A stretch of DNA of 64,000 nucleotides from Anaerolineales bacterium (GCA_049578465.1 JBAUMB010000055.1:18085-82084), one strand, 5' to 3'; shown: positions 3,129 to 64,000, counted from the first letter of the stretch. A program made the numbers and translations. Notes: generated by a model from the sequence alone, not told the origin.

Positions 3129-4451
3129 ATGTCAACCAAAGAAACCCTCATCAAAAAATTTCAAGATAAATCTGCAAGAATTGGAATCCTCGGCATGGGA
3201 TATGTTGGGATGCCGCTGGCAGTTGCGTTCGCCGAGACGGGCTTCAATGTCCTCGGCATTGACCCGGATCAGCGCAAGACGGATACGTTCAAAAAAAACA
3301 TTTCATACATTCAGGATGTGCCGACCGAAACTGTGGCGCGCTTGCATAAAAGTGGAAAGTTGAATATGACCACTGACTTCGCCGCGTTGAAAGATATGGA
3401 TGCGGTCAGCATTTGTGTACCCACGCCTCTGCGTCAAACCGGCGATCCGGATATGTCGTTCATCAATTCAGCGGCGGATCAACTCGCGAAATATGTCCAC
3501 AAAGGAATGGTTGTTGTTTTGGAATCAACCACTTATCCCGGCACGACGCGTGAAGTGATGATTCCGAAATTGACGGAACAATCCGGACTGAAAGTGGGCG
3601 AGGATATCTTCATTTGCTTCTCGCCTGAACGAGTCGATCCTGGGCGAAAAGATTGGACCACATTGAACACGCCGAAAGTCATAGGCGGAATTACGGCCGC
3701 GTGTGTTGAAGTTGCTGAGGCTTGGTACGGCGGCGCAATCAAGACCATCGTGCCGGTTTCTTCTGCAGAAGCGGCAGAGATGGCGAAACTATTGGAAAAC
3801 ACCTTCCGCATGATTAATATTGGATTGGTCAATGAACTCGCGATCATGTGCGAACGTTTGGGCGTGGATGTTTGGGAGGTCATTGATGCCGCGGCGACGA
3901 AACCGTTTGGCTTTATGAAGTTCACACCGGGTCCTGGTTTGGGCGGACATTGCATCCCGATTGACCCGTTATATCTTTCATGGAAAATGAAAGAGATGAA
4001 TTACAATGCGCGCTTCATCGAGTTGGCATCCGAGATCAATACGAACATGCCGCGCTATGTCGTCAGCCGCATTTTGGATGCAATGAATGACCGCGGCAAA
4101 GTTTTAAAAGGATCAAAGGTGTTGGTACTTGGCGTAGCCTACAAACCGGATATTGACGATGTGCGCGAGTCACCCGCGCTGGATGTGATCGCATTGTTAA
4201 AGAAAAAAGGCGCGCAGGTTTCGTATCATGACCCGTACATCCCGCAGATTCATCATGAACATGAAGGCTGGAAGATGGACAGCGTCAAAGACGCGATGCA
4301 AGCTGTCAAGGAATCGGATGCGGTGGTGATTGTCACCAATCATAAAGCGTATGATTACCCAGCAATCCTTGCCCAAGCAAAATTTGTATTCGATAGCCGC
4401 AATGCGTTGGGAAAATTAGGAAAAGAAAGCGACAAAGTCGCAAGGCTCTAA
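3129..4451 (+). CDS. nucleotide-sugar 6-dehydrogenase (UDP-glucose/GDP-mannose dehydrogenase family; substrate not assignable)
   Basis: N-terminal Rossmann IGILGMGYVGMPLAVAFA, catalytic-Cys region PGPGLGGHCIPIDP, about 440 aa. Confidence 0.85.
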   Translation: MSTKETLIKKFQDKSARIGILGMGYVGMPLAVAFAETGFNVLGIDPDQRKTDTFKKNISYIQDVPTETVARLHKSGKLNMTTDFAALKDMDAVSICVPTPLRQTGDPDMSFINSAADQLAKYVHKGMVVVLESTTYPGTTREVMIPKLTEQSGLKVGEDIFICFSPERVDPGRKDWTTLNTPKVIGGITAACVEVAEAWYGGAIKTIVPVSSAEAAEMAKLLENTFRMINIGLVNELAIMCERLGVDVWEVIDAAATKPFGFMKFTPGPGLGGHCIPIDPLYLSWKMKEMNYNARFIELASEINTNMPRYVVSRILDAMNDRGKVLKGSKVLVLGVAYKPDIDDVRESPALDVIALLKKKGAQVSYHDPYIPQIHHEHEGWKMDSVKDAMQAVKESDAVVIVTNHKAYDYPAILAQAKFVFDSRNALGKLGKESDKVARL

Positions 4452-4453
4452 TT

Positions 4454-5425
4454 ATGGGAAAGTATTTGGTCACCGGCGCGGCGGGTTTCATTGGCGCACG
4501 CACCTCGGAAATGTTGATTGAAGATGGACACACCGTCGTCGGTGTGGATAACCTGAACGACGCATATGATCCGCGCATGAAAGAATATCGCTTGAAGAAA
4601 TTGCAAGCCTTGCCGAGATTTGCATTTCATCAATTGGATATTTCTGACAAATCCGTCATTGATCATTTCAAAGGTGAAAAACTTGACGGAGTCATTAATC
4701 TTGCAGCGCGCGCGGGTGTGCGTTACAGCGTTGAGAATCCGTGGGCGTATGTCAATGCCAACGTGGTTGGCACATTGAATATGCTGGAGTTGTGCAAGCA
4801 AAGTGAGACAAAGAAATTTATCTTCGCCTCCACATCCAGCATTTATGGAGCGAATCCTCCGTATCCAACACCGGAAGCCGCTTCGAGCAGTGAGCCGCTT
4901 CAACCGTATGCCGCCAGTAAAAAAGGCGCGGAAGCGTTGTGTCATTCATATCATCATTTATATGATATTGATGTTACGGTCGTACGCTTTTTCACCGTGT
5001 ATGGTCCCGCGGGCAGACCGGACTTGGCGTTGTTCCGTTTTGTGCAATGGATTAGCGAAGGACGACCGGTGCGCGTAAATGGCGACGGGAATCAATCGCG
5101 CGGCTTTACATACATTGATGACATCGCGCGCGGCACGATGCTTGCGCTCAAACCGCTTGGATACGAAATCATTAACATTGGCGGACATGAAGTCATCACC
5201 ATCAATGATTCAATTAAATTGATTGAAGAGTTGACCGGTAAAAAAGCAAACGTTCAATATGGCGCGCCGAATTTGGCGGATATGTTCACCAATTGGGCGG
5301 ATGTCAGCAAAGCAAAAAAACTTTTGGGCTGGGCGCCTCAAGTGGGACTCCGCGAGGGCGTGAAAAAGTTAATTGATTGGTACGCCGCTGAGAGGTCGTG
5401 GGCGAGCGGGATTTTGACTCCGTGA
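4454..5425 (+). CDS. NAD-dependent nucleotide-sugar epimerase, UDP-glucuronate 4-epimerase-like SDR
   Basis: VTGAAGFIGA Rossmann motif, NDAYDPRMKEYRLKKL (the YYD..LK..RL-type motif of uronate 4-epimerases), YAASK catalytic motif. Lies directly after the dehydrogenase. Confidence 0.75.
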   Translation: MGKYLVTGAAGFIGARTSEMLIEDGHTVVGVDNLNDAYDPRMKEYRLKKLQALPRFAFHQLDISDKSVIDHFKGEKLDGVINLAARAGVRYSVENPWAYVNANVVGTLNMLELCKQSETKKFIFASTSSIYGANPPYPTPEAASSSEPLQPYAASKKGAEALCHSYHHLYDIDVTVVRFFTVYGPAGRPDLALFRFVQWISEGRPVRVNGDGNQSRGFTYIDDIARGTMLALKPLGYEIINIGGHEVITINDSIKLIEELTGKKANVQYGAPNLADMFTNWADVSKAKKLLGWAPQVGLREGVKKLIDWYAAERSWASGILTP

Positions 5426-6762
5426 ATTCTTGGCGTCATCGGTTTGAATCGTGGCGTGCAGATAACATCCTGCGCCGCGTCGTTCGCAACAGCGGATATT
5501 TATTCAGCTCCACAACTATTTCTGCGGTATTAGGTTTCGTGCAAGGAATCTTTGCCGTGCGCCTGCTCGGCATTAACGGTTATGGACTCGCGGTTGGCAC
5601 GATCATTTTGTTTGCGTCGAATGTGAACCGTTTGCTATCGTTCCGTATGAGCGAAGTGATGGTGAAATATTTGGCGGAAGCGCTGACGAATGAAAAGTAT
5701 CAGCGCGCCGCGGCCATCGTCAAAGCCATCGGGTTGGTCGAAGGTTTTACTTCGGTCGCCGCCTATCTGATTTTATTGGCATTGACTCCCTGGGCGGCGC
5801 GCACATTTGCAAAAGATCCGGCCACCGCTCCGCTCTTTGCGTTCTATGGTCTTTCTCTTTTGTCGAATCTGATTTATGAAACTTCGACCGGCGTTCTGCA
5901 AGCCACCGATCGCTTCGACCGCGTGGCGGTGATCAATTTGATTCAAAGTATCATCACCGCGGCGATGATCTTTGCGGATTTTGTTTTGAAGCGCGGCATG
6001 GTGGATATTTTGACCGCCTATCTTGTTGGCAAAACATTTACCGGCATTGCCGTGATTTATTTTGCAGTGCTCGAATTGAATAAAGTCCTCGGCAAGGATT
6101 GGATTCGCGCTTCGCTTCGTCAATTGACTGATTGGCGTTCGATTGGCGGTTTCGCGATCAATACCAACTTGAATGGCACGATCACGCTCTTTGTGCGCGA
6201 TAATGCGCCGTTGTACCTTGCCGCGTTTGCAACCGTGACCGAAGTCGGTTATTTCAAACTCGCCTTGAGTCTGGTTAGCATCGTTTCATTGCCCATCGAG
6301 CCGTTCATCTGGCCCACCTATGCCGAGTTGACGCGCAGTATCGCTTTGCGACAGTGGAAGGAAACGAAACGACTCTTGCGCCGCGTCAGCGCGATTGCGG
6401 GCGGCTGGACTCTTGCGGCCGGCGGCGGATTGGTCGCGTTCGGATGGTGGCTTCTGCCGTTCGTGTATGGCGCTGACGCGCGTCCCGCGTATTTCTCGTT
6501 AGCCATTTTGCTGATCGGCTATGGAATGGCAAACGTCTTTCATTGGAATCGTCCGCTGTTGCTGGCGTTTGGAATGCCGGGCTTTCCGGTGATAGCGATG
6601 ACCGTGGTCGGCGTGGTGGAGATCGCATTGATCTTTTTGCTCGTGCCGCATTACGGCTATCTGGCGGAGTCCGCTATCGTTTCTGGATACTTCGTGGTCG
6701 CCATCGGCTGGATCGTTTGGCGCGGCTTGAGCGTGCTTCATCAAAAGGAAATAACCACATGA
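5398..6762 (+). CDS. MOP-superfamily oligosaccharide flippase (Wzx-like polysaccharide biosynthesis protein)
   Basis: About 450 aa, roughly 12-14 hydrophobic segments, position in a glycan locus. An alternative GTG start at 5422 gives a GTGA overlap with the upstream stop and may be the real start. Confidence 0.7.
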   Translation: MGERDFDSVNSWRHRFESWRADNILRRVVRNSGYLFSSTTISAVLGFVQGIFAVRLLGINGYGLAVGTIILFASNVNRLLSFRMSEVMVKYLAEALTNEKYQRAAAIVKAIGLVEGFTSVAAYLILLALTPWAARTFAKDPATAPLFAFYGLSLLSNLIYETSTGVLQATDRFDRVAVINLIQSIITAAMIFADFVLKRGMVDILTAYLVGKTFTGIAVIYFAVLELNKVLGKDWIRASLRQLTDWRSIGGFAINTNLNGTITLFVRDNAPLYLAAFATVTEVGYFKLALSLVSIVSLPIEPFIWPTYAELTRSIALRQWKETKRLLRRVSAIAGGWTLAAGGGLVAFGWWLLPFVYGADARPAYFSLAILLIGYGMANVFHWNRPLLLAFGMPGFPVIAMTVVGVVEIALIFLLVPHYGYLAESAIVSGYFVVAIGWIVWRGLSVLHQKEITT

Positions 6763-6880: not shown

Positions 6881-8008
6881 ATGAAGATCGTTGCGATTGC
6901 AGGCTCGCGCATTCCATCGGATACCGCCAACAGCATTCAAGTGATGAAGGCTTGCCAGGCGTTGGTTCAACTCGGACATGAACTCACGCTGATTATCCCG
7001 GCAAATCCATCTTCTATTCAACATCCTCCGGTGGACGAAATCGCATCGTTATACGGGCTTCAAACTTCTTTTAACATTGAATGGTTATCTTCCATCAATC
7101 GCCGCTTGTTCACGTGGCAGGCGGTGCAGCGCGCCCGCGCACTCCAGCCCGATCTGCTTTACGTATGGATGGTTCAATCCGCCGTTTTTGGATTACTGAC
7201 GCATTTGCCGGTGGTCTTTGAGATTCATATTCAGCCCTCTGGATTGCTTGGTCCGGTGTGGCATCGTTGGTTCGCGCGCATTCGCGGACGCAAGCGCTTG
7301 GTTTCGATCACGCGCGCGCTCGTGGATGTTTTGCAGAATCAATTCAGTGTTCAACTCAATGCAGATGAAATTGTCATTGCGCCCAATGGCGTTGACCTTG
7401 AACGATTCGCTTCATTGCCCAAGCCGGTTACGGCGCGACGACAATTGAACTTCGTCGAAGCCCCGACCGTGATGTGTACCGGTCATCTCTACGCGGGACG
7501 CGGCGTTGAACTCTTCATTGAGTTGGCGCGCAGAATTCCAAGCGCGCAATTCGTGTGGGTTGGCGGACGCCCTCAGGATGTCAATGAATGGCGCGCAAAA
7601 GCCTCATCTCAAAATTTGCAAAACGTTTTGTTCACCGGCTTCATCCCCAATCGTGATCTTCCGTTATATCAATCCGCGGCGGACGTATTGCTCATGCCGT
7701 ATGCGCGTTCGATCTTTGGCTCGAGCGGTTCAGCGGACTCTGCCGCGGTTGCCAGCCCGATGAAGATGTTCGAATACATGGCGGCGGAACGCGCCATCAT
7801 CACCAGCGACTTGCCGGTGATCCGCGAAGTGCTGAATGAAACGAACGCCGTCTTTTGCCCGCCCGATGATGTGAACGCTTGGAAGACTGCACTCGAAAAT
7901 TTACTTGCGGTTGAATCTCGGCGACTGATGTTTGCGAAACAAGCGCGCTTCGCGGTAGAAAATCATACATGGATTGCGCGAGCTCGGCATGTGTTGAATG
8001 GATTTTAG
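6881..8008 (+). CDS. glycosyltransferase family 4 (GT-B)
   Basis: N-terminal MKIVAIAG..., C-terminal half with GGRP...LLMPY...KMFEYMAAERAIITSD (E-x7-E-like region). Confidence 0.8.
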   Translation: MKIVAIAGSRIPSDTANSIQVMKACQALVQLGHELTLIIPANPSSIQHPPVDEIASLYGLQTSFNIEWLSSINRRLFTWQAVQRARALQPDLLYVWMVQSAVFGLLTHLPVVFEIHIQPSGLLGPVWHRWFARIRGRKRLVSITRALVDVLQNQFSVQLNADEIVIAPNGVDLERFASLPKPVTARRQLNFVEAPTVMCTGHLYAGRGVELFIELARRIPSAQFVWVGGRPQDVNEWRAKASSQNLQNVLFTGFIPNRDLPLYQSAADVLLMPYARSIFGSSGSADSAAVASPMKMFEYMAAERAIITSDLPVIREVLNETNAVFCPPDDVNAWKTALENLLAVESRRLMFAKQARFAVENHTWIARARHVLNGF

Positions 8009-8108
8009 CAAGCGAGCTTTTTCAAAGGTTCGCCAGTTTTTAGGCTTATACCATTAGCAATTCCCATTTTGTGGTTTATAAACCTTTTTGTGATTCTTGT
8101 ATCTGTAA

Positions 8109-8537
8109 TTACTTGAAAAATAATTCTTTGAGCGTTAATAACAATGAAAGAGTGAAAGATATTCCCAACAATATATCTCGTCCGTTTTCTATAGTTCTAT
8201 CAATCCATTTCCCAAAATGATTCTTTCGCTCATACTTTGCTCGGCGATAAGCAGAAGATAATAAGAAAACGTGTCCATTTTCTTGAGTTTCAATATACCC
8301 GAGTTTTTCAAGGCTTGTTATTGGGTTGCCTTTGGGTATTTCAAATTGAGTACTATCGTCTGTCCCGTCTCCAATCAGTACATAAAAATATAAGCCATCT
8401 GGGCTATGAGTAGCACAAAGCACATCAAGAGACTCATCACGTTGTGCTCTATCGACTAATGCGACCAATATTTTGGCTACTGATTTAGGAAGAGGATCAC
8501 TGAGGTTCAGAGATTCCATAATTTGCCTTACCTTCAT
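8109..8537 (-). CDS. hypothetical protein with a C-terminal membrane anchor, in an AT-rich islet
   Basis: 142-aa ORF on the opposite strand to all neighbours. Single C-terminal hydrophobic segment ILLGISFTLSLLLTL. No family recognised. Confidence 0.5.
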   Translation of the reverse strand: MKVRQIMESLNLSDPLPKSVAKILVALVDRAQRDESLDVLCATHSPDGLYFYVLIGDGTDDSTQFEIPKGNPITSLEKLGYIETQENGHVFLLSSAYRRAKYERKNHFGKWIDRTIENGRDILLGISFTLSLLLTLKELFFK

Positions 8538-8692
8538 GTAGTAGAAATTTTGTATCTAAGCTCAGGTTGATTAATATGAAAGTAAATCTTGTACATAATT
8601 ATACGCCCGTGTGAAAAACTTGTTCTAATATTATGCGCACAGGCACGGATCATATTCTCTCAATAAAGCAGGTGGGGTAGAATAAGCCCGAT

Positions 8693-10303
8693 ATGCAAAC
8701 CCAAAAACTCTTTCTTAAAGATTTTCTTTTCATCCTGCCTGTCTCTTTGATTCTCGGCGCGGGGCTGGCATCCATCCAAAATGGCGCGTGGTGGATCGGC
8801 TGGCTGGGTTTTTCCGCGCTCTTCATCGTTGGGTTGATCGCGCTGGTCATTGCATGGCGTTGGGGCGAGGGCGGCAAGACTCTCGCATGGATGATCGGGC
8901 TTGCACTTCTGCTTCGGCTGGCGGCGGGCGTCGCAGTTTATATTGCCTTGCCCATCAACGGTCATAATTCTGCGGACGATAAAGCCGGTTATGTCTTCAC
9001 CGACGCGCATCGCCGCGACGATCAAGCCTGGGGACTCGCCAGTTCAGATAAGCCATTGTGGTCGGCGTTCGATCAAAGCTATTACACCGATCAGTACGGT
9101 GGATTGCTTGCCTTCAGCGCGATTACGTATCGAGTTCTTTCGCCGGATGCACATCGTCCGTTGTTGATTCTTCTGCTCGCGGCTTTGACCGCTGCACTCG
9201 GCGTTCCCTTTCTTTATAAAGCCACGCGTCTGCTCTGGGATGATAAGCTGGCAACCGTTACCTGTTGGCTTTTTGTTCTCTATCCCGAATCGATTCTTAC
9301 TGGCGGCGCGCAAATGCGTGAGCCGTTTCTTTTAACATTTATTGCGATGTCATTATGGGGCTTTGCCGATTGGTTGAAACAAGGACAAAGCGTTGCCCTG
9401 AGCCTGTTGAAGGGTCACGGTTGGATTTGGATGGCGATTGGCTTCGTCGGGATGTTGATGGTTTCACCGGCAATTGCATTGGCAACTTTGGTGATCTTTG
9501 CCGTTTGGGTTTATTTGCGCGGCGATCATAAACGAATCCCATGGCAAGCATTGGTTGTGCTCTCTGTGATTTTTATTCTCGGTCTACTCGTTCTTTTATG
9601 GGAATTGAATCGTACTCACGATTTCGGCTCTTCATCTCCGGTTGGTATGGTCTTGGATTGGGTCCGCAACGCTGTGAAATACAATATATATCGCCTCGAA
9701 CGCGGCTCGGGTTGGATTCAATCGTTATTCAGAAAAATGAGCACCAGCGGACAATTATTGTTTGCAATCATTTATGGCTTCTTGCAACCGGTTCTGCCCG
9801 CCGCATTCATCGAGCCGACCACGTTGACTTGGAAGATCATTGCCATTCTGCGCGCAATGGGATGGTATGCGATTTTACCGTTGATGATTTACAGTTTGAT
9901 TGCAGCTTGGCGCACACCGCCTGGATCGGAACGCCGTGTGTGGCTTTGGATTTCCGCCGTCTCATGGGTGTGGATTTTGATCTGCTCTATTAAAGCCGGT
10001 GGCGATCAATGGGACAATCCGCGTTATCGGTTGATTCTTTTCGCTTTCGAAGCATTGACCGCCGGTTATGCCTGGACGTGGTGGCGCGCGCATCGTGATG
10101 CCTGGTTGCCGCGCATTACGCTAGTCGAGGTGTTGGCAGTGTTGATCTTCCTGGAATGGTATATCAGCCGTTATTATCATTGGGGCGGACAAATGCCGTT
10201 CTTCTTGATGATCGGCTTGATCGTACTGGTCAGTGTTGTGATTATCGGCGGGGGCTGGCTTTGGGATCGACGTGCCGCTTCAAAGTCCCGCTTGACACGC
10301 TAA
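8693..10303 (+). CDS. polytopic membrane protein, GT-C-like (function unknown)
   Basis: 536 aa with more than 10 hydrophobic segments. Acidic loop motif FTDAHRRDDQAW follows the first TM block. No confident family. Confidence 0.5.
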   Translation: MQTQKLFLKDFLFILPVSLILGAGLASIQNGAWWIGWLGFSALFIVGLIALVIAWRWGEGGKTLAWMIGLALLLRLAAGVAVYIALPINGHNSADDKAGYVFTDAHRRDDQAWGLASSDKPLWSAFDQSYYTDQYGGLLAFSAITYRVLSPDAHRPLLILLLAALTAALGVPFLYKATRLLWDDKLATVTCWLFVLYPESILTGGAQMREPFLLTFIAMSLWGFADWLKQGQSVALSLLKGHGWIWMAIGFVGMLMVSPAIALATLVIFAVWVYLRGDHKRIPWQALVVLSVIFILGLLVLLWELNRTHDFGSSSPVGMVLDWVRNAVKYNIYRLERGSGWIQSLFRKMSTSGQLLFAIIYGFLQPVLPAAFIEPTTLTWKIIAILRAMGWYAILPLMIYSLIAAWRTPPGSERRVWLWISAVSWVWILICSIKAGGDQWDNPRYRLILFAFEALTAGYAWTWWRAHRDAWLPRITLVEVLAVLIFLEWYISRYYHWGGQMPFFLMIGLIVLVSVVIIGGGWLWDRRAASKSRLTR

Positions 10304-10358: not shown

Positions 10359-11324
<966 letters not shown>

Positions 11325-37610: not shown

Positions 37611-37611
37611 C

Positions 37612-48707: not shown

Positions 48708-48714
48708 GAACGCA

Positions 48715-49470: not shown

Positions 49471-49476
49471 AATTAT

Positions 49477-49521: not shown

Positions 49522-49568
49522 CGTGGCAATCTCAACTATCATTAAAGAAATTGATTAAATTAAAACAT

Positions 49569-49600: not shown

Positions 49601-49605
49601 AAATT

Positions 49606-53064: not shown

Positions 53065-53068
53065 ATTC

Positions 53069-56212: not shown

Positions 56213-56662
56213 ATGACCGGAAAACGAAACATGTTTCTCTTTTATTTCTCCATCACGCTCGCCATCGCCTCCAGCGCACTCTATCACTTTAGCCAGAAGT
56301 CCACACCAACAGATGTCAACCCCGCAGTTGCCATCATGGTCACGTACGCGGTTGCGTTTTGTCTGACCGTGATCTTAGCTTTCTTCATCCCAACCAAAAT
56401 TGGATTCCTCGCCGAACTACGGCAATTGAATTGGGCAAGCTATCTGTTGGCATTTTCCGTCGTCGGACTCGAAGTTGGCTTTCTGCTCGTTTATCGTTCC
56501 GGCTGGAACATTGGCATCGCCGCGGTGCTGGTCAATGTGGTGGCTTCGTTATTATTAGTGCCAGTTGCTTTACTGGTATTCAAGCAACACCTCTCTTGGA
56601 TTAACATCATCGGCATTCTGGTTTGTCTGGCTGGACTGGTTATGCTAAACTGGAAGAGATAG
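56213..56662 (+). CDS. small DMT/EamA-like membrane protein (4-5 TMs)
   Basis: 149 aa, almost entirely hydrophobic, single EamA-like half-transporter layout comparable in size to ArnE/ArnF-type subunits. Confidence 0.55.
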   Translation: MTGKRNMFLFYFSITLAIASSALYHFSQKSTPTDVNPAVAIMVTYAVAFCLTVILAFFIPTKIGFLAELRQLNWASYLLAFSVVGLEVGFLLVYRSGWNIGIAAVLVNVVASLLLVPVALLVFKQHLSWINIIGILVCLAGLVMLNWKR

Positions 56663-56680: not shown

Positions 56681-57709
56681 ATGTTTTCTCGTTTCAAAAG
56701 TGCTGCACGTATTCTTATTAAGGGCGAACCTAAAAAGAAACAACGCAATCCGATTCCTGCCATCACGCTTGATGAAATTGCAGAGATCAAGCAATTCTTC
56801 CCGCGCGAGAAATTTTTCATCTTTGGTCATGCGCGTTCTGGGACGACGCTTCTCATGCGGCTTGTGCGCTTGCACCCCGAAGTGCATTGCGATTATCAGG
56901 CACACTACTTCACGCGCAAACCATTGTTGAAATCACTGGTCGATTCACTTGAGATCGAAGAATGGCTGACGCGCAAATCGAATCGTTGGAATCACGGGCG
57001 CGATCTCTCGCCGCTTGTTCTGCGTGCATCAGCGGACATCATCATGGAACGCGAAGCGGCTCGCGAAGGCAAAATGATTATTGGCGATAAAAGCCCCTCA
57101 TCCATGATTCACGGTCAAGCTGTGCGTGACATGCAAGCGGTCTATCCCGACGCAAAATTAGTTTACATCGTCCGTGATGGACGCGATGTATTAATCTCGG
57201 AACGTTTCCGTAACTTTGTGGAAGATTCAAAATTCCTGACATCCGAAGATAAACGCATCATCGAAGAATTACGCAAGGATCAGAATCAATTTACAAATGG
57301 CACGCGCTCGATTTTCACCGAACCATTTATCCGACGCGTGGCAAAAGGTTGGATTACGAATTTGCAGGAAATCGAAGACGAAGGACAACGATTGTTCGAT
57401 AAAAATTATTTTTCCTTGCGATATGAAGATTTGCTCAGCGACTCATTTAATGAAATGACGCGGTTATGGAAATTTCTCGCCGTGAAAAAAGTTGATAAAC
57501 CGTTATCGAAGATGATCAAGATAGAGATGGAGTCAAACCCGGATGAGGAGTGGCAGGCTCAACGGGATGAAGGAATCGCTTCGTTCCTTCCGAAAGGTCA
57601 GGCTGGTAATTGGGAGAGACTTTTCACGGCGAGGGATAAATCCGTCTTCAAAGAAGTTGCAGGTGAGATGTTAATTAAGTGGAAGTATGAGAAGGATTTG
57701 AATTGGTGA
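56681..57709 (+). CDS. sulfotransferase (PAPS-dependent)
   Basis: FFIFGHARSGTTLLMRLV (5'-PSB loop), YIVRDGRDVLIS (3'-PB position). Confidence 0.8.
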   Translation: MFSRFKSAARILIKGEPKKKQRNPIPAITLDEIAEIKQFFPREKFFIFGHARSGTTLLMRLVRLHPEVHCDYQAHYFTRKPLLKSLVDSLEIEEWLTRKSNRWNHGRDLSPLVLRASADIIMEREAAREGKMIIGDKSPSSMIHGQAVRDMQAVYPDAKLVYIVRDGRDVLISERFRNFVEDSKFLTSEDKRIIEELRKDQNQFTNGTRSIFTEPFIRRVAKGWITNLQEIEDEGQRLFDKNYFSLRYEDLLSDSFNEMTRLWKFLAVKKVDKPLSKMIKIEMESNPDEEWQAQRDEGIASFLPKGQAGNWERLFTARDKSVFKEVAGEMLIKWKYEKDLNW

Positions 57710-57712: not shown

Positions 57713-58702
57713 ATGAAATTTCTCATTGCTGGACTCGGCTCGATTGGCCGCCGACATTTTCGCAACCTGATTTCGTTCGGCGAAAAAGATATTGTCTTGC
57801 TTCGTTCTCATCGCGCCACTTTATCCGATGATGAACTAGCTGGCTATCCCGTTGAAACAAATTTAAATGAAGCGCTAAAAAAATATAAACCTGATGCCGT
57901 TATCATTTCAAATCCAACCGCATTGCATCTGGATATTGCAATTCCGTCTGCAAATGCAGGCTGTTCGATTTTGATTGAAAAGCCGATCTCGAATTCGCTA
58001 GACCAAATTGATCAACTCGAATATGCGCTTGCAAAAGGCGGCGGGCAACTGCTCGTCGGCTTTCAATTCCGCTTTCATCCGACTTTGCAAAAAGCTGCGC
58101 AATTGTTAAAAGAAAATGCCATCGGCAAACCGCTTTCTTTTCACGCGCATTGGGGCGAGTATCTTCCCGATTGGCATCCGTGGGAAGATTTCAAACAAAG
58201 TTATGCGGCTCGATCTGATTTGGGCGGCGGCGTCATTTTCACTTTGACTCATCCGCTCGATTATCTCCGCATGTTGCTCGGTGAAGTGGATTCGCTTTGG
58301 GCTTTCACCGGCGCGTCGAATCTCGGACTCGAAGTGGAAGACACGGCGGAAATTGGTTTGAAGCTGAAGAGCGGCGCGCTCGGCTCCGTTCATTTGGATT
58401 ACAATCAACAGCCGCCCAGTCATCGCTGGGAAATTGTCGGCTCGAACGGCACGATGAAATGGGATAACGCCTCAGGCAATCTGGATGTGTTTTCAGCAGA
58501 GAAAAAAGATTGGGAAACATATCAGCCCCCCGCGGGCTTCGAACGAAACGTGATGTTCATCGAAGAAATGAAACATTTCATTGCCGTTGCCCAGAAAAAA
58601 GAATCGCCTATCTGCACATTAGACGATGGCAAACAAGCTTTGCGATTAGCGTTGGCGGCACATGAGTCTGAAAGAAGAGGAACTTTAGTAAAATTGAGTT
58701 AG
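57713..58702 (+). CDS. Gfo/Idh/MocA family sugar oxidoreductase
   Basis: MKFLIAGLGSIGRRH Rossmann motif, ILIEKP motif, 329 aa. Confidence 0.85.
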   Translation: MKFLIAGLGSIGRRHFRNLISFGEKDIVLLRSHRATLSDDELAGYPVETNLNEALKKYKPDAVIISNPTALHLDIAIPSANAGCSILIEKPISNSLDQIDQLEYALAKGGGQLLVGFQFRFHPTLQKAAQLLKENAIGKPLSFHAHWGEYLPDWHPWEDFKQSYAARSDLGGGVIFTLTHPLDYLRMLLGEVDSLWAFTGASNLGLEVEDTAEIGLKLKSGALGSVHLDYNQQPPSHRWEIVGSNGTMKWDNASGNLDVFSAEKKDWETYQPPAGFERNVMFIEEMKHFIAVAQKKESPICTLDDGKQALRLALAAHESERRGTLVKLS

Positions 58703-58705: not shown

Positions 58706-60724
58706 ATGTTCGTGAATAAACTTCGCTCGTTGATCAAATCGGAATTATTTATCGCCATATTTTTGTTGGTCGCAGTTTCGGCGATTGCCTATCTGCCGTT
58801 CATCGCGCATTTCAGTTATTTCAATGACGATTGGTATGAGATGTTCGCCACGGGCACGCGTGGACCAATGATATTTATTGATATTTTTAGCGTTGATCGT
58901 CCTGCCCGCGCTCTTCTGATGATTCCGTTATATATTCTTTTTGGACGAAATCCATTTCCTTATAATGTAAGCGCTTATTTGTTCCGCTTGTTTAGCGGCT
59001 TGTCGGTTCTTTGGAGCCTGCGCATGGTCTGGCCCCAGCAGAAACGTTTGGCAACGTTGGCGGCTTTGTTTTATTTGATCTATCCCGGCTTTTTATCCCA
59101 ACCGAATGCGATTGATTTTCAGTCGCACATCGCCGGATTATTCTTTGCGACTTTTTCCATCGCCTTGACTTTGAAAGCGGTCAAGACCCAAAGCTTGTGG
59201 ACAAGGATTCTCCTGAGCGGATTATCCATATTCTTTGGTTTCGCCTATCTGAGTCAGATGGAATATTATGCGGGCTATGAGGTTGTGCGCTTGGTCCTTC
59301 TTTTTATTCTTGCAGGGCAAACCGAAAAGAATTTCTTTGCTAAGTTGAAGCGCGCGGTGTTGTGGTATTTACCGTTCATCGTTGTGCCTATCATCTTTTT
59401 TACGTGGCGGCTGTTTTTCTTTCAAGATGTCCGCAAGCAGACGGATATAAGCCTACAATTGGGGAGTTTAATTACTGCTCCGTGGCATACGATTCTACTT
59501 TGGAGCGCCACGCTGATTCAAAACATGGTGGATGTCACAGTGCTGGCTTGGGTTGTGCCGTTCTATCATGCTTTTGCAAATCTGCCACCCATCAATGTTT
59601 TTCTCGGTTTGGGCGCCGCGTTGATTGCGATCCTGTTTGCATGGATTTCATTAAGACGGATCTCTTTGGATTCCGCATCGGAAACCGGCTGGCAATTAGA
59701 AAACTTATGGACTGGGCTGGTCATCGTTGCAGGCGGTTTGGCTCCGATCATTGCAGCCAATCGCGGCGTAGACTTTAGCGACTTTTCGCGCTATTCCGTG
59801 ATCAGCATGTTTGGTGCCGCAATGATTCTTGCGGTTTTTATTGATCGCCTAAAGAATTACGGATTCCAGCTTGGATTTATTTTGCTCTTGATCAGCATTG
59901 CTGTCATTACCCACTTTGAAAATGGCGCCAGTTATGCGCACTCTGCAGATTCAAATAATGTTTTTTGGTGGCAGGTGAGCTGGCGTATTCCTCAAATGAA
60001 ACCGGGGACAACGCTTGTGGTTAATTATCCTTTTGGACAGGCAGGTGAGGATTATACGATCTGGTCGCCCGCCGATATGATCTATTATCCCCAAAGCCAG
60101 AGTCAAAAATTCATCCAACCCGCTATTTATGCTGCGCTGTTGAATCACGATGCGGTGAACAAAGTTCTATCCAACAAAGGAGTCGAATACGACACGCGCC
60201 GCGGCTCCATTCACACATTTACAAATTACAGCAATATTCTTGTAATTACCCAACCCACGTCGGCTTCGTGTGTTCACGTTATCGATGGAAATCAAACGGA
60301 ATTGTCATCCTATGAGGATGAGCGCGTGATGTTGATGGCACCCTATTCGCAAATCCAGGATGTTATGCCAGAGAAGCAATTCAAAACCCCGCCGCAATTT
60401 CCGTTTGGGTCGGAGCCGACGCGGAACTGGTGCTATTATTATGAGAAAGCTTCGTATGCTGGTCAGATTGGGGATTGGCAGACCGTCCTCAATCTAGGTG
60501 ATCAAACTGAGAAGCTTCGCCTCGTCCCTCAGGATTTAATTGAATGGATGCCGTTCCTGCAAGCCTATGCTCATTTTGGAAATCAAGCCCAGCTTACAGA
60601 GTTGGCGCATCCCATCAAATCCGATCCATACGTGACAACACAAGCCTGCCGAATCTTAACTGGGATGCAGTTAGATTCATCCACAATGGATCTCGTAAAA
60701 AGCCTCTACTGCGTTTCAAAATAG
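58706..60724 (+). CDS. large polytopic membrane protein, GT-C-like
   Basis: 672 aa. FNDDWYEMF acidic motif after the first TM, then more than 10 TMs and a C-terminal soluble domain of about 200 aa. GTG 58712 (6 nt after AGGAG) is an alternative start. Confidence 0.55.
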   Translation: MFVNKLRSLIKSELFIAIFLLVAVSAIAYLPFIAHFSYFNDDWYEMFATGTRGPMIFIDIFSVDRPARALLMIPLYILFGRNPFPYNVSAYLFRLFSGLSVLWSLRMVWPQQKRLATLAALFYLIYPGFLSQPNAIDFQSHIAGLFFATFSIALTLKAVKTQSLWTRILLSGLSIFFGFAYLSQMEYYAGYEVVRLVLLFILAGQTEKNFFAKLKRAVLWYLPFIVVPIIFFTWRLFFFQDVRKQTDISLQLGSLITAPWHTILLWSATLIQNMVDVTVLAWVVPFYHAFANLPPINVFLGLGAALIAILFAWISLRRISLDSASETGWQLENLWTGLVIVAGGLAPIIAANRGVDFSDFSRYSVISMFGAAMILAVFIDRLKNYGFQLGFILLLISIAVITHFENGASYAHSADSNNVFWWQVSWRIPQMKPGTTLVVNYPFGQAGEDYTIWSPADMIYYPQSQSQKFIQPAIYAALLNHDAVNKVLSNKGVEYDTRRGSIHTFTNYSNILVITQPTSASCVHVIDGNQTELSSYEDERVMLMAPYSQIQDVMPEKQFKTPPQFPFGSEPTRNWCYYYEKASYAGQIGDWQTVLNLGDQTEKLRLVPQDLIEWMPFLQAYAHFGNQAQLTELAHPIKSDPYVTTQACRILTGMQLDSSTMDLVKSLYCVSK

Positions 60725-60795: not shown

Positions 60796-62529
<1,734 letters not shown>

Positions 62530-62538
62530 ATAATTTGA

Positions 62539-64000
62539 ATGAAGATCCGCATTACGCCTCGCCTCGTTTCTTTCCTGATCCTCGGCCTGCTGACCCTTAT
62601 CGGGATATTCCTCGTGCTCCGATCCACACCCGAGGGTCTTGGCTTGTCCGATGATTCGATCGCGTATATTGCGGGTGCGCGCAGTCTGCTGGCAGGACAT
62701 GGTTATCGTGAAGCATGGCTGGTAAGCGATAATCCGATCACACATTTCCCACCCGGATTTTCTTCCGCGCTGACTGTAATCGGTTTATTTGGATTGGATC
62801 CGTTGCGCGGTGCGCGCTTCCTCAATGCTTTATTGTTTGGATTAAGCACAGGGCTGATCGGCACCCTTGGTTGGCGCATGACAAAGTCGCTAGTTGCGGG
62901 ACTTGTGCTGGCCGCGCTGTTCGTTTTGAATGGATCATTATTGCAAGTTTATACAACAGCGATGAGTGAGCCGCTCTTCATCTTTTTGAGTCTGCTCGCG
63001 TTCTGGATGTTCGATCTATATTTTGAACGCGACATGCATTGGTTATGGATGATCGCTTGCGGAGTCTTCGTCGGCGCGGCATACTTGACGCGTTATGCCG
63101 GACTAGCTTTAGTCGCCACATTTCTTTTTGCATTGTTTCTCCTGCACAATACCTGGCGAAAGCGACTCGTCAGTGTGGGAATATTTCTCGCAAGCGTTTT
63201 GCCATTTGTTGTCGGCTGGTCAATTCGCAACATCATCGTCGCAGGCAATGCCACCAATCGCGAATTGATATGGCATCCGATCACGGCCAGCAATTTCAAT
63301 ACCACGCTTTATACGATCTCGCAATTTCTTGTTCCTGTGGAAGATTGGCGCAAACAATTATACAAAACTCCCGTGCTGTTTATTGCTCTCACGACATTGA
63401 TTTTATTAGTAGTGTTGGTTTGGGTAATAATCAAGGCATGGAATTATTTTGGAACACATTCACCAGCATCATCAGAGACAATTTCATTTTCAACAGGTTT
63501 ATATGTCTTTGGATACATTGCCTCAATCATTGCTTCGATGTTGCTCTTTGACGCCTCCACGAAATTTCAGTTACGGATTCTTGCGCCCATCTTTATCTCG
63601 CTGTTAATTCTACTTGTGTTGTTTGGGGTTTGGTTATGGCAGAAGCGCCGCGAGGCGGCCATTCTATTAGCATTATTTTTTATAGGCATATCTATTTACA
63701 ATCAAATCGCGACCGTGCAAGACCTTTCAAAAGGCGGACAAGGATTCGCTTCCTTTGATTGGTACGACTCAAAGGCAATCGCTTATTTGCGTACCATCCC
63801 TCGCGCACTGATGATTTACACTAATGAAACGGGCGCGGTATATTTATATACCAACCGTCCCACTTATTCTTTGCCGAATCGTTTTGATCCAGTAACTGCT
63901 CAAGTTCGATCCGGTTATGAACAAGGCGTAGCATTAATGCATCAACAGATTCTGAATAAGAAAGCGGTGCTGGCAATCTTTGCGAGCGGTGAACAATCAT
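62539..64000 (+). CDS. GT39/ArnT-like polytopic glycosyltransferase, 3' end outside the window (absent from the supplied ORF track)
   Basis: I translated this myself. ATG 62539: MKIRITPRLVSFLILGLLTLIGIFLVLRSTPEGLGLSDDSIAYIAGARSLLAGHGYREAW... It stays open to base 64000, with many TM segments and a DDS acidic motif after TM1. Confidence 0.65.
   Translation, partial: MKIRITPRLVSFLILGLLTLIGIFLVLRSTPEGLGLSDDSIAYIAGARSLLAGHGYREAWLVSDNPITHFPPGFSSALTVIGLFGLDPLRGARFLNALLFGLSTGLIGTLGWRMTKSLVAGLVLAALFVLNGSLLQVYTTAMSEPLFIFLSLLAFWMFDLYFERDMHWLWMIACGVFVGAAYLTRYAGLALVATFLFALFLLHNTWRKRLVSVGIFLASVLPFVVGWSIRNIIVAGNATNRELIWHPITASNFNTTLYTISQFLVPVEDWRKQLYKTPVLFIALTTLILLVVLVWVIIKAWNYFGTHSPASSETISFSTGLYVFGYIASIIASMLLFDASTKFQLRILAPIFISLLILLVLFGVWLWQKRREAAILLALFFIGISIYNQIATVQDLSKGGQGFASFDWYDSKAIAYLRTIPRALMIYTNETGAVYLYTNRPTYSLPNRFDPVTAQVRSGYEQGVALMHQQILNKKAVLAIFASGEQS

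Follow-up and report, generated by a model that had tools for sequence, protein, structure and literature searches.

The window analysed here, 64,000 nucleotides from an uncultured Anaerolineales (Chloroflexota) bacterium, contains a genuine gene island exceeding 61 kb in length, whose function is most likely to build and decorate cell-envelope sugar polymers. We favour, with a probability of roughly 60%, a modular locus for one or more envelope glycans that depend on an ABC transporter for export and to which several GT-C enzymes, acting outside the membrane, add sugars from polyprenyl-phosphate donors. The first island gene encodes a Ugd-type UDP-glucose/GDP-mannose 6-dehydrogenase (3129–4451; all features are on the plus strand unless stated otherwise), and the island does not stop at the window end but runs on for 10 kb or more. 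The Ugd gene comes after UDG both in the window and in a relative, L001. Our own CDS list, starting at 3129, placed 49 of the 52 CDS on the plus strand, exactly as in the original prediction, and the remaining three (8109–8537, 21463–22569 and 30673–32100) on the minus strand. The ORF at 8109–8537 belongs to no family and has no counterpart in L001, and may therefore be spurious. Every one of the eight predicted translational-coupling overlaps was found, with ATGA/TAATG-type junctions at 14811, 15731, 19561, 34742, 38901/38904, 40496/40508, 47650 and 54667. Profile searches of every CDS showed the predicted enzyme inventory to be essentially correct, and the general reading as an island for a decorated (methyl, sulfate, acidic sugar) envelope glycan or for glycosylation holds. 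As in the original prediction, the island could not be matched to a described locus; literature searches returned none.

Comparison with related genomes showed a core with the order 8693-family gene, Gmd, ArnC/GtrB-like GT2, UPF0104, 15731-family gene and GT4, which was collinear, on one strand and with fixed offsets, in 41–45 of the 45 species-level genomes with full flanks. The GT2 and UPF0104 genes were present in 45/45, GT4 in 43/45, Gmd in 42/45 (at about 79% identity in related loci) and the 8693-family gene in 41/45, in every case no more than 10 kb away from the 15731 homologue. Relatives of 15731 were found in at least 582 species-representative genomes; the core is common to hundreds of related species and is found across many Anaerolineae genomes. 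In 17 long metagenome loci around 28668 homologues, genes of the 15731/26255 family were found in 13, the ArnC-like GT2 in 12, Fcl in 9, the methyltransferase–GT2 fusion in 8, Wzm in 8 and Wzt in 7, these last four at 72–78% identity. The same backbone covers at least 48 kb of one 1.28-Mb contig, with homologues 47–56% identical. Genes 11401 and 21463–25146 are missing from L001, an 87%-identical relative, and an 11401 homologue was detectable in only 5 of the 45 loci. The island extends past the window and is not a fixed unit: it consists of a core conserved throughout the order and a conserved ABC-transporter module with strain-variable blocks inserted. Sulfate, methyl and ulosonic acid are handled by accessory blocks that differ between genomes.

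The family assignments establish precursor supply as the first of four likely stages. Uronic acids would be made by Ugd (UDPG_MGDP_dh N, central and C domains at 144, 112 and 102 bits in Pfam) and an NAD-dependent sugar-nucleotide epimerase/dehydratase, a candidate uronate epimerase (4454–5425; Pfam Epimerase, 197 bits); both scored above the Pfam gathering scores, in agreement with the predicted uronic-acid gene pair. A glutamine-dependent amidotransferase of the AsnB family (19561–21447; Asn_synthase, 330 bits, plus GATase_7) is a candidate uronamide former and may amidate them. A GDP-6-deoxyhexose would be supplied by Gmd, a GDP-mannose 4,6-dehydratase (10359–11324; GDP_Man_Dehyd, 440 bits), together with an Fcl-like SDR (35788–36759) and an SDR sugar-nucleotide epimerase/reductase (34742–35770; Epimerase, 136 bits; no NCBIfam equivalog passed). 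In the predicted gmd/fcl pair the gmd assignment stands, but the 35788 product, although above its Pfam threshold, is only GDP-L-fucose synthase-like, its full-length match to NCBIfam GDPFucSynFcl scoring 295 bits against a cut-off of 500. A 6-deoxy-hexosamine and an ulosonic acid would come from an inverting PseB-type UDP-GlcNAc 4,6-dehydratase (43454–44464; equivalog TIGR03589, 502 bits vs 408), an RmlD-like 4-keto reductase (44501–45421; RmlD_sub_bind, 219 bits; TIGR01214, 202 bits, under 224), a NeuB-family ulosonic-acid synthase (45431–46498; NeuB, 223 bits, plus SAF) and a cytidylyltransferase of the CMP-ulosonic-acid synthetase type (51279–52094; CTP_transf_3, 93 bits). The pseB/neuB/spsF set of the original prediction was recovered for PseB as an equivalog, but the NeuB and PseI equivalogs and the KdsB-type NCBIfam models were all under their cut-offs, and the set had no aminotransferase and no PseG/PseH-type match. 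As judged by equivalog tests, the ulosonic-acid pathway is incomplete. PAPS would be provided by a fused sulfurylase/kinase, a bifunctional PAPS synthase with PUA_2, ATP sulfurylase and APS kinase domains (60802–62529; 163, 276 and 192 bits).

In the cytoplasm, GT4 and GT2 enzymes would then build a polyprenyl-linked glycan, for which the initiating transferase would be encoded elsewhere. The four predicted GT4 proteins, at 6881–8008 (Glyco_trans_1_4, Glycos_transf_1, Glyco_transf_4), 18431–19561 (the core member; Glycos_transf_1, 138 bits), 21463–22569 (minus strand, variable block; 77 bits) and 46508–47653 (108 bits), and the three predicted GT2 domains, at 13858, in the C-terminal half of 30673 and at 53000–54103 (Glycos_transf_2, 49.7 bits), were all above Pfam gathering scores. 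The GT-A-like call at 52147–53064 is weak, the match to Glyco_tranf_2_3 (E 0.0016) reaching 18.9 bits against a cut-off of 27. Pfam scans of every CDS gave no match to phosphoglycosyl-transferase (Bac_transf, MraY/WecA), Wzy, Wzz or transposase families, as had been predicted, and the window contains no LCP-type ligase; the start and the attachment of the polymer are therefore untraceable within it.

Soluble sulfotransferases and methyltransferases would decorate or cap this glycan. SAM-dependent methyltransferases were found at 17719–18426 (Methyltransf_23, _11, _25), 23319–24020 (Methyltransf_23, _11) and 40496–41344 (Methyltransf_11, _25), and with the fused domain in 30673 four of the five predicted methyltransferase domains were supported by HMMs. 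The fifth, predicted at 22599 (ORF 22569–23294; GC 0.42), contains methyltransferase-like motif strings only and was rejected, since Methyltransf_12 was under threshold (E 0.06). A PAPS-dependent sulfotransferase (24244–25146; Sulfotransfer_1, 45.3 bits vs 22) and two further sulfotransferases (41347–42213; Sulfotransfer_1, 60.1 bits, and Sulfotransfer_3, 49.2 bits; 56681–57709; Sulfotransfer_3, 85.7 bits, and Sulfotransfer_1, 66.5 bits) passed the Pfam thresholds, as did the PAPS synthase. The 58706-family gene adjoins the PAPS synthase gene in L086–L088, and the order sulfotransferase, GFO/IDH/MocA oxidoreductase (57713–58702; Pfam), 58706-family gene, PAPS synthase and PMT is retained in a genome with a 58706 homologue of only 44% identity, which strengthens the prediction that the island has its own sulfation supply.

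Other products in the island are a TagF-like glycerophosphotransferase-family protein (54667–56163; Glyphos_transf, 31.5 bits vs 22.1), a FabG-like SDR (47949–48707; adh_short_C2, 228 bits; NCBIfam 3-oxoacyl-ACP reductase), an AAC(3)-family N-acetyltransferase (48715–49470; Antibiotic_NAT, 156 bits), a DUF4910/DUF2172/M28 peptidase-like protein (49606–50931; Pfam) and two LapA-domain membrane proteins, one of 91 aa whose gene has an ATGA overlap with the preceding gene (47650–47925; LapA_dom, 50 bits) and a second at 50952–51275 (44 bits). The 42215–43429 product has a hydrophobic N-terminal segment, no Pfam or PDB match and low GC (0.38; GC3 0.25), and is probably secreted and foreign; the 54134–54667 product belongs to no family, has two predicted TM segments and is also encoded at low GC (0.33).

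Export of the finished chain would be by Wzm/Wzt, as suggested by the components present. The ABC-transporter module is headed by a MarR/winged-helix regulator (34248–34745; HTH_24, MarR_2), a type also found upstream of Wzm/Wzt in L002, L004 and L005. Wzm is an ABC-2 permease (36762–37610; ABC2_membrane, 76 bits), and the Wzt ATPase (37612–38904; ABC_tran, 83 bits) has a C-terminal carbohydrate-binding-type domain (Wzt_C, 31.5 bits vs 30.4), which suggests recognition of a terminal cap. The gene that follows, as it does after Wzt in L002 and L005, encodes a Capsule_synth (KpsS/KpsC-type) family transferase (38901–40508; 34.6 bits vs 20), a candidate ulosonic-acid transferase or chain cap that may attach a terminal ulosonic acid. 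A Wzx/MOP-type flippase-like membrane protein with nine hydrophobic segments in a hydropathy scan (5398–6762; Polysacc_synt, 34.2 bits vs 28.2; Polysacc_synt_3, 29.4 bits) was also above the Pfam threshold. The prediction of two export routes is uncertain: the Wzx-like protein is accompanied by neither Wzy nor Wzz nor an initiating transferase. By analogy with a characterised three-component system, in which a MATE-family flippase flips a lipid-linked monosaccharide (PMC11127046), the 5398 protein may instead act on such a substrate.

Lipid-linked sugar donors for extension outside the membrane would be made by an ArnC/GtrB-type polyprenyl-phosphate glycosyl synthase (13858–14814), which showed full-length PDB alignments to ArnC (1e-62) and GtrB sll0501 (1e-43); in NCBIfam, its scores of 234 bits for ArnC and 184 bits for PgfS fell short of the equivalog cut-offs. 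The protein encoded on the minus strand at 30673–32100 is a fusion of an N-terminal methyltransferase (Methyltransf_25) and a C-terminal GT2 (Glycos_transf_2); the GT2 half appears closest to polyprenyl-P-sugar synthases (best PDB matches, spanning only about 110 aa, DPMS 5mlz at 2e-13 and ArnC at 5e-12) and possibly also loads polyprenyl phosphate. This fusion adjoins the 28668 homologue in L002, L003, L005 and 8 of the 17 metagenome loci (72% identity). Flipping of these donors would fall to the UPF0104 proteins, to the Wzx-like and EamA proteins, or to both groups. Both predicted UPF0104 proteins passed the Pfam thresholds, a UPF0104/MprF-flippase-domain protein at 14811–15734 (LPG_synthase_TM, 124 bits; TIGR00374 'flippase-like domain', 62.9 bits vs 43.2) and a second at 25175–26221 (LPG_synthase_TM, 61.2 bits vs 33.4). 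The described cases of UPF0104 flippases concern phospholipids and glycolipids, none polyprenyl-phosphate sugars (PMC12713373; bioRxiv 10.1101/2022.03.11.483950). Three-component systems have been described (PMC11127046, PMC8035078), and archaeal AglD is a GT2 fused to UPF0104 (PMC5898192). A small membrane protein with a single EamA domain (56213–56662; 26.3 bits, just under 28.2) is a possible small flippase or transporter.

Of the eight large GT-C-like membrane enzymes that had been predicted, seven are supported, through their own HMM matches in two cases, predicted structures in four and HMM matches of family members in one. The size range given for all eight (536–793 aa) could not be kept, as the protein from 62539 runs off the window. 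Only two of the eight passed a GT-C HMM threshold: the strain-variable PMT_2-type protein of 793 aa (11401–13782; GC 0.41; PMT_2, 29.4 bits vs 26.1) and the PMT/PMT_2-type protein with a GLSDDS motif (62539–64000, from the frame translation; PMT, 32.9 bits vs 22.7; PMT_2, 27.8 vs 26.1), which has 516–539 aa in relatives. The other six showed no Pfam or NCBIfam match even at E≤10.

AlphaFold2 models searched with Foldseek argue for a GT-C fold in two paralogous pairs, each from a family that no HMM matches. The first pair is 15731–17698 (motif SETSRFY; family-invariant E177, R180, Y182) and 26255–28630 (SEGDRFY; 27% identity over 659 aa, E 3e-49 in BLASTP); the 15731 model (pLDDT 90.7) had AftA, ArnT, 9n9j_I and PimE as its top four PDB matches, which were marginal (E 1e-3 to 0.09, TM ~0.4). 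The second pair, 28668–30671 (FDDY; invariant D121, Y122) and 32173–34191 (GDDY; 32% identity over 676 aa, E 2e-109), was represented by a 28668 model (pLDDT 85) whose 18 best matches were AftA, DPY19, PglB, yeast/human oligosaccharyltransferase entries and ArnT (E 4e-7 to 1e-3). The seventh protein, a divergent PMT_2-like GT-C candidate of 536 aa (8693–10303), itself has no Pfam match; PMT_2 was matched by 18 of 68 members of its family at E≤1 (best 6.8e-8), and the invariant residues of the family include D104, R108 and D109. It is a partner of the 15731 family, and two fusion proteins, P0383 and P0386, each combine domains resembling 8693 and 15731. For the polytopic protein at 58706–60724 (motif NDDWY; invariant D41, D42, W43, Y44), no Pfam, NCBIfam or PDB sequence match was found even across 57 family members, and hhalign against A2 and A4 was negative; motif and topology make it a GT-C candidate. 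The invariant acidic residues in these four families (E177; D121; D104, D109; D41, D42) directly follow a TM segment, on the side predicted by the positive-inside rule to be outside the cell.

The seven or eight GT-C enzymes would transfer sugars to the exported polymer or to another surface acceptor. If the acceptor were a protein instead of a polysaccharide, the island would be a protein-glycosylation system, a rival that the sequence does not separate from the ABC-transporter-dependent envelope glycan favoured here. The logic proposed for such a glycan is the same as in mycobacterial arabinogalactan assembly and in side-chain addition to the streptococcal rhamnose cell-wall polysaccharide. 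The assembly logic of the island is already known from other bacteria, and several of its membrane-enzyme families are without any public model.

Genes are named here by their start coordinate in the window. From 3129 to the window end, 49 of 52 CDS were found on the + strand (six-frame ORF list and frame translation of the last 1.5 kb), in agreement with the original prediction, and all eight overlapping stop/start junctions that it quoted were present in the junction table. The minus-strand exceptions were a GT4 gene (21463–22569), a methyltransferase–GT2 fusion (30673–32100) and a doubtful 142-aa ORF (8109–8537). This ORF showed no family match and lies antisense inside an AT-rich spacer of 685 bp (8009–8692) that separates a GT4 gene from 8693. 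In the 87%-identical relative L001, the equivalent spacer is only about 318 bp; the spacer may be promoter DNA or what is left of an insertion. Upstream of 3129, Pfam analysis of the region 8–3027 showed genes for a GINT1_N-domain protein, TsaE, TsaB, RimI and uracil-DNA glycosylase (UDG); position 3129 was regarded as the true left border because of these housekeeping genes, and the junction from UDG to Ugd is also seen in L001. The GINT1_N match of the first gene (8–760, + strand), which directly precedes the TsaE–TsaB–RimI–UDG genes, is strong at 153 bits; this domain forms the N-terminal part of glucosamine inositolphosphorylceramide transferase 1. The right border is absent from the window: the ORF starting at 62539 runs past the window end, and the locus extends at least 10 kb further in relatives. 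Scans of the window for tRNA genes and Rfam families gave no matches, and hence no RNA landmarks or integration sites in it. An origin as a mobile element or prophage was rejected, as integrase and transposase matches were lacking and the flanking housekeeping genes are conserved in relatives.

Most of the gene calls made previously from the sequence were upheld above curated thresholds (Pfam for all CDS, NCBIfam for selected CDS). The methyltransferase call for 22599 failed by HMM (E 0.06), and of the GT-A-like call for 52147 only a weak likeness was left. Several genes were found in addition to those predicted: an AsnB-type amidotransferase (19561), a MarR-type regulator (34248), a KpsS/KpsC-family "Capsule_synth" protein (38901) immediately 3′ of Wzt, two LapA-domain mini-proteins (47650 and 50952), a FabG-like SDR, an AAC(3)-like acetyltransferase and a DUF4910/M28-like protein (47949–50931), a TagF-like protein (54667), an EamA-type small membrane protein (56213) and a GFO/IDH/MocA oxidoreductase (57713). 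The LapA ("lipopolysaccharide assembly protein A") domains are carried by small membrane proteins inside the island (47650–47925 and 50952–51275, + strand); Chloroflexota are generally regarded as having no LPS. The LCP ligase family gave no match among the window CDS in Pfam scans, searches of 38901 against PDB sequences returned nothing, and an exact-match look-up found no identical copy of the 11401 protein on record. Compared to an island mean GC of 0.48, low values were found for three genes on the + strand, 54134–54667 (0.33), 11401–13782 (0.41) and 22569–23294 (0.42); L001, a close relative, lacks both 11401 and 22569, which are thus considered strain-variable cargo within a conserved backbone. 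Between a sulfotransferase gene and PseB lies 42215–43429 (+ strand), encoding a protein of 404 aa whose N-terminal segment is hydrophobic; it matched no family and no PDB entry, the sole Pfam hint being a weak match to BNR_4 (E 0.18). Its strongly deviant composition (GC 0.38 and GC3 0.25 versus the island mean of 0.48) makes it appear a recent foreign insertion.

The predicted number of eight large membrane proteins was confirmed, the eighth (from 62539) being truncated by the window end. Two passed GT-C HMMs: 11401 (PMT_2, 29.4 versus a threshold of 26.1) and the protein starting at 62539 (PMT, 32.9 versus 22.7; PMT_2, 27.8 versus 26.1). The other six, which form two paralogous pairs (15731 with 26255 and 28668 with 32173) and two singletons (8693 and 58706), showed no Pfam or NCBIfam match even at E≤10. 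The GT-C calls thus fell below HMM thresholds for six of the eight proteins, an outcome that the original prediction had named as counting against it; of these six, the call was rescued by structure for four and by family-level matches for a fifth. Database searches with 15731, 28668, 58706 and 8693 detected several hundred relatives of each, without a precomputed Pfam domain, and the named sources were Anaerolineales, Anaerolineae or Chloroflexi. We refer to each protein with its relatives as a family, with 26255 included in the 15731 family and 32173 in the 28668 family. Profiles of the four families gave no meaningful match to PDB sequences, and all hhalign comparisons among them were negative or insignificant, so that the families could not be linked to each other by sequence.

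In a Foldseek search of the PDB, the top four matches of the AlphaFold2 model of 15731 (pLDDT 90.7) were AftA, ArnT, 9n9j_I and PimE, all marginal (E 1e-3 to 0.09, TM about 0.4). For the model of 28668 (pLDDT 85.1), the 18 best matches were all GT-C-type or oligosaccharyltransferase entries (AftA, DPY19, PglB, yeast and human OST, and ArnT), with E-values from 4e-7 to 1e-3. AftA (8if8) was the best structural match of both modelled families. According to these models the 15731 and 28668 families are predicted to have the GT-C fold, an assignment that would extend to 26255 and 32173 through paralogy. Identity as Wzy or O-antigen ligase was rejected for both families, since neither was present among their structural neighbours. 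The 8693 family, in which 18 of 68 members scanned singly matched PMT_2 (best 6.8e-8), is taken as a probable divergent PMT_2-like GT-C. For the 58706 family, a profile search against PDB sequences, hhalign and Pfam scans of 57 members gave only scattered chance matches or nothing; a putative GT-C status is suggested by the invariant D41-D42-W43-Y44, which immediately follows TM segment 1, and by a large C-terminal domain in which no TM segments are predicted. Invariant acidic residues follow a TM segment in every family (E177 in the 15731 family, D121 in the 28668 family, D41/D42 in the 58706 family and D104/D109 in the 8693 family), and the positive-inside rule would place the loop that carries them outside the cell. 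A polyprenyl-phosphate-linked sugar is the putative donor of the GT-C candidates, as suggested by their linkage to ArnC/GtrB-type GT2 genes. By family or structure, the island encodes at least seven GT-C-type enzymes.

Two export routes had been predicted. For the ABC exporter, Wzm matched ABC2_membrane with 76 bits and Wzt matched ABC_tran with 83 bits, and the Wzt_C domain was detected slightly over its cut-off (31.5 versus 30.4 bits). The Capsule_synth-type protein 38901 and the methyltransferase 40496 are candidate chain terminators by position only. Of the Wzx/Wzy-dependent route, the Wzx-like protein was retrieved (34.2 bits); Wzy and Wzz gave no match in the Pfam scans of the window CDS, and although divergent Wzy proteins can evade HMMs, both unassigned polytopic proteins that were modelled are GT-Cs by predicted structure. 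These scans also agreed with the prediction in giving no match to mobile-element families or to a phosphoglycosyl transferase of the WecA/WbaP type, and the initiating transferase may be encoded outside the window.

The predicted sulfation module with PAPS synthesis in the same locus was confirmed: all three sulfotransferases were above the gathering score, the PAPS synthase is a fusion of PUA_2, ATP-sulfurylase and APS-kinase domains, and the adjacency is kept in the related loci L086–L088. The order sulfotransferase–GFO/IDH/MocA–58706-family–PAPS synthase–PMT is maintained both where identity is 83% and where it falls to 44%. The PMT gene of relatives is followed by an SDR, a cytidylyltransferase–phosphatase fusion, a second NeuB-type synthase, one or more sulfotransferases and a second Capsule_synth gene, which suggests a second ulosonic-acid module. 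This downstream stretch spans 12095–22013 in L086 and L087 and 12133–21511 in L088, and its NeuB-type synthase is about 291 aa. An extra sulfotransferase was present in L086 and L087, a BrnT toxin gene in L086 and a 23S_rRNA_IVP gene in L088. The proposed pseB/neuB/spsF set in the window stood in part: PseB passed as an equivalog (502 versus 408), whereas the synthase and the cytidylyltransferase were below equivalog cut-offs, with scores of the NeuB-family synthase of 237 for PseI (cut-off 340) and 261 for NeuB (cut-off 400). An RmlD-like reductase gene directly follows PseB, and no DegT-type aminotransferase or PseG/PseH-type protein was matched in the window. The canonical pseudaminic-acid pathway was rejected, as the set of PseB, PseC, PseH, PseG, PseI and PseF is incomplete.

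Relatives of 15731 were found in at least 582 genomes when one genome per GTDB species was scanned. The closest relatives, with proteins 80–89% identical, are MAGs from soils and fens; their labels are Anaerolineales, Anaerolineae or "uncultured Chloroflexia" (MFD series). All 80 loci that were kept, including several from Candidatus Villigracilis species, were labelled Anaerolineae, Anaerolineales, Chloroflexi or Chloroflexota, except one labelled only "bacterium". Counts in those 45 loci that had complete flanks of 10 kb defined a core consisting of an 8693-family gene (41/45), Gmd (10359; 42/45), an ArnC/GtrB-like GT2 (13858; 45/45), UPF0104 (14811; 45/45), a 15731-family gene and a GT4 of the 18431 type (43/45). 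The core genes are on a common strand at near-constant offsets, and in all 45 loci the GT2–UPF0104 pair is followed at once by the GT-C-fold gene. From the ABC module, which in the window comprises MarR (34248), SDR, Fcl-like (35788), Wzm (36762), Wzt (37612) and Capsule_synth (38901), MarR was found in 25, Wzm in 22 and Wzt in 18 of these loci. Natural fusions of 8693-like and 15731-like domains (P0383, 1141 aa; P0386, 1164 aa) provide Rosetta-stone evidence that the two families act together. In another protein, P0379 (1091 aa), an 8693-like domain is joined to a different polytopic half at its C-terminus, for which the window has no match. Around homologues of 28668, 17 long loci contained 15731/26255-family genes (13 loci), the ArnC-like GT2 (12), Fcl (9), the methyltransferase–GT2 fusion (8), Wzm (8) and Wzt (7); the fusion, Fcl, Wzm and Wzt were 72–78% identical, compared to 44% for the GT-C itself. 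In the literature we found no described counterpart of the locus or its families from Anaerolineae or Chloroflexi.

Two related metagenomic sequences were observed. In one super-locus (L004 and L005; ena:ERZ25039477 contig_20656, 468–517 kb) the MarR–Wzm–Wzt module is doubled, and the first copy precedes a GT2 and a gene of the GT11 type (fucosyltransferase family); this suggests module duplication as one possible route of locus diversification. The near-identical contig L003 (ena:ERZ25039540 contig_50066), on which a protein fragment matches a section of 28668 with 100% identity, has the gene order of the window at 18–40 kb, with most genes split into fragments, which is consistent with uncorrected assembly indel errors rather than pseudogenes.

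The 61 kb may alternatively comprise independent co-directional loci side by side, each with its own product, namely a wall-polymer core, an ABC-transporter O-polysaccharide-like locus and a sulfated, ulosonic-acid capsule or EPS locus. We regard this as unlikely as a full account, and as partly true in that the content appears modular and variable between genomes. Downstream of the core, MarR, Wzm and Wzt are at 3–7 kb in most genomes versus 18.5–22 kb in the window, and part of the latter gap is a block (21463–25146; GT4, unknown protein, methyltransferase and sulfotransferase) that, like 11401, is missing from L001. Moreover, the second UPF0104 gene of the related locus L002 is preceded by genes other than those in the window, several genes have a deviant GC of 0.33–0.42 versus the mean of 0.48, and one 1.28-Mb contig with homologues 47–56% identical carries two MarR–Wzm–Wzt modules. 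That same contig, however, shares the backbone across a stretch of 48 kb or more, and in relatives ranging from 89% to 47% identity the modules remain adjacent, with order and strand preserved. The co-occurrence of the 15731 and 28668 families in 13 of 17 loci also argues against separate loci, as do the division of one pathway between Gmd in the core and the Fcl-like protein in the ABC module, and the presence in the window of three sulfotransferase blocks with one PAPS synthase.

The same gene set could serve protein glycosylation, with lipid-linked sugars or oligosaccharides being flipped and PMT-, DPY19- or STT3-like GT-C enzymes acting on secreted, S-layer or envelope proteins, for which actinobacterial and streptococcal O-glycosylation (Pgf) and N-glycan completion by archaeal AglD/AglS are precedents. 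The PMT and PMT_2 models passed by two proteins are named for protein O-mannosyltransferases, but the PMT_2 model is broad and passing it names no protein acceptor. DPY19, PglB and oligosaccharyltransferase entries are structural neighbours of the 28668 model, whereas the top match of both models is the polysaccharide-acting AftA, and a WWDxG-type oligosaccharyltransferase motif is absent from the invariant residues of the 28668 family. Further points in favor are PgfS, from a protein-glycosylation system, as the second-best NCBIfam match of 13858, the AglD architecture of GT2 with UPF0104 (PMC5898192), and the streptococcal GT-C enzymes that glycosylate Ser/Thr-rich regions of membrane proteins (PMC12041528). 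Nevertheless, tight linkage to Wzm/Wzt (Wzt_C) and a KpsS/C-type transferase indicates polymer export, and the island encodes no candidate acceptor protein. Due to the exporter linkage, the AftA matches and the lack of both motif and acceptor, protein glycosylation was ranked lower and is considered rather improbable.

The GT2 13858 aligns over its full length with the solved structures of ArnC (1e-62) and GtrB (1e-43) and scores below the NCBIfam equivalog cut-offs, and by this alignment it is assigned as a predicted polyprenyl-phosphate glycosyl synthase of the ArnC/GtrB type. An MprF flippase-type domain was found in 14811 (LPG_synthase_TM, 124 bits; TIGR00374 passed) and 25175. No GtrA-family match was obtained in the Pfam scans of the window, and the flippase slot of the GT2–UPF0104–GT-C triad, present in 45/45 loci and with 14811 and 15731 overlapping by 4 bases, is occupied by UPF0104. 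Alternative flippase candidates in the window are the Wzx-like 5398 and the EamA-like 56213. Archaeal AglD is a precedent for pairing of a GT2 with UPF0104 (PMC5898192). It is very unlikely that the GT2–UPF0104 pairs instead make and flip a glycolipid (a glycosylated phospholipid or lipoglycan anchor, cf. GpgSDF and HexSDF) that the membrane proteins extend into a lipoglycan: both UPF0104 genes pass the Pfam model, and phospholipids and glycolipids are described or predicted substrates of this MprF flippase domain (PMC12713373; bioRxiv 10.1101/2022.03.11.483950), but GpgS is a GT4 (PMC12713373), 13858 aligns end to end with enzymes acting on undecaprenyl phosphate, and in 45/45 loci the pair is directly followed by the gene of a GT-C fold whose known enzymes use polyprenyl-linked donors.

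A further-reaching reading, to which we give a probability of roughly one in five, is that the core and the ABC module may constitute biosynthetic machinery for the outer envelope layer found in Anaerolineae. Such a layer would consist of an acidic heteroglycan or lipoglycan bearing sulfate; its assembly would be largely extracytoplasmic and involve at least three to four GT-C families absent from current databases, some of them as heteromeric pairs (8693 with 15731). In the mode of action that we consider most likely, cytoplasmic synthesis on a polyprenyl carrier would yield a polymer that is methylated, sulfated and perhaps given an ulosonic-acid cap by 38901 before its export by Wzm/Wzt. 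In parallel, 13858 would load a monosaccharide onto polyprenyl phosphate, as may the DPMS/ArnC-like GT2 half of 30673, and, once flipped, these donors would serve the GT-C enzymes in extending or decorating the polymer on the outer side of the membrane. We speculate that the donor sugar is a GDP-mannose-derived 6-deoxyhexose, with Gmd close to the GT2 in 42/45 loci. The same operating logic is found in known three-component systems (PMC11127046, PMC8035078). With many clustered GT-Cs, the logic is most likely similar to that of mycobacterial arabinogalactan assembly.

The mycobacterial arabinogalactan and lipoarabinomannan system combines Wzm/Wzt-type galactan export, a decaprenyl-P-arabinose donor, a small flippase and clustered AftA-D and EmbA-C. 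Like it, the island brings several GT-Cs together with an ABC-2 exporter, a pathway for lipid-phosphate sugar donors and a flippase candidate, and the fusion and co-occurrence of two GT-C families recall the heteromeric EmbA–EmbB. The island differs in that it lacks the PRPP/UbiA/DprE route, has a donor synthase of the ArnC/GtrB type and a UPF0104 rather than GtrA/SMR flippase candidate, and shows no detectable sequence similarity of its enzymes to Aft or Emb. Its sugars (6-deoxyhexose, uronic and ulosonic acids), its sulfation and methylation modules and the phylum are also different.

The operon plan of 13858–14811–15731 is the same as in Gtr-type three-component systems (streptococcal GacI/GacL, which add side chains to Rha-CWPS, CsbB/YfhO and the pentofuranose systems of GT136; PMC11127046, PMC8035078, PMC9574508), with a GtrB/ArnC-like GT2, a flippase-type membrane protein and a GT-C, stop/start overlaps and a tie to an ABC-transporter-dependent polymer. 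In contrast to these systems, the flippase candidate is UPF0104/PplT and not GtrA, SMR or MATE, the GT-C family has no Pfam/NCBIfam match and has Glu in S-E-x-x-R-F-Y as the invariant acidic residue, and there are up to eight GT-Cs instead of one. In Haloferax volcanii, the Wzx-like flippase AglR and the lipid-P-sugar-dependent membrane transferase AglS complete the AglD system for the final mannose of the S-layer N-glycan. The GT2 with a UPF0104 membrane domain of this system, fused in AglD (PMC5898192), resembles the island pair. That system is archaeal, with dolichol and a protein acceptor, whereas the island GT2 and UPF0104 are separate, translationally coupled and located in a polysaccharide-type locus with Wzm/Wzt.

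Capped, ABC-exported polymers are known from the Pseudomonas aeruginosa common polysaccharide antigen (gmd-rmd-wzm-wzt-GT4s), E. coli O9a (WbdD/Wzt-CBM) and Klebsiella O12 (WbbB β-Kdo cap). The stretch 34742–41344 (SDR, Fcl-like, Wzm, Wzt with Wzt_C, KpsS/C-family protein and methyltransferase), together with Gmd in the core, is similar to these loci, except that the module is headed by a MarR-type regulator and tied to GT-C genes; no WbdD-type kinase or coiled-coil ruler was seen in the island. The pathway of the sulfated exopolysaccharide synechan is of the Wzx/Wzy type, and its locus is not known to have a GT-C set. Sulfotransferases among glycosyltransferases are shared by the island and the synechan (xss) locus of Synechocystis PCC 6803 (PMC8205485). 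Unlike that locus, the island encodes a PAPS synthase, and Pfam scans of the window gave no match to Wzy, a polysaccharide co-polymerase or an outer-membrane export protein.

The operating principles are already known, and what is new is the unusual density of eight candidate GT-C genes in about 55 kb, the candidacy of UPF0104 as flippase in a three-component system, the conservation of the core in many Anaerolineae genomes, and a sulfation module with PAPS synthase in a non-cyanobacterial bacterium. To our knowledge, sulfated bacterial polysaccharide loci are rare outside cyanobacteria, and a locus with its own PAPS synthase is relevant to biopolymers and to sulfated or ulosonic-acid EPS components. 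Three families (15731, 28668 and 58706) lack Pfam/NCBIfam matches and the 8693 family is marginally recognised; two families gain a predicted GT-C fold, and an S-E-x-x-R-F-Y active-site variant is available for testing. Anaerolineae are abundant in soils, sediments and wastewater sludge. The locus bears on the make-up of the outer envelope layers of Chloroflexota, which have been suggested to be "polysaccharides or proteins" (PMC13319060); the organism is uncultured, and every chemical step is deduced. The collinear core in hundreds of Anaerolineae species supplies concrete candidate genes for such an outer layer. If the core and the ABC module do build this layer, an arabinogalactan-like wall architecture would have arisen independently in Chloroflexota, and it could account for the multilayered, Gram-negative-staining envelopes of bacteria generally regarded as lacking a true outer membrane and LPS.
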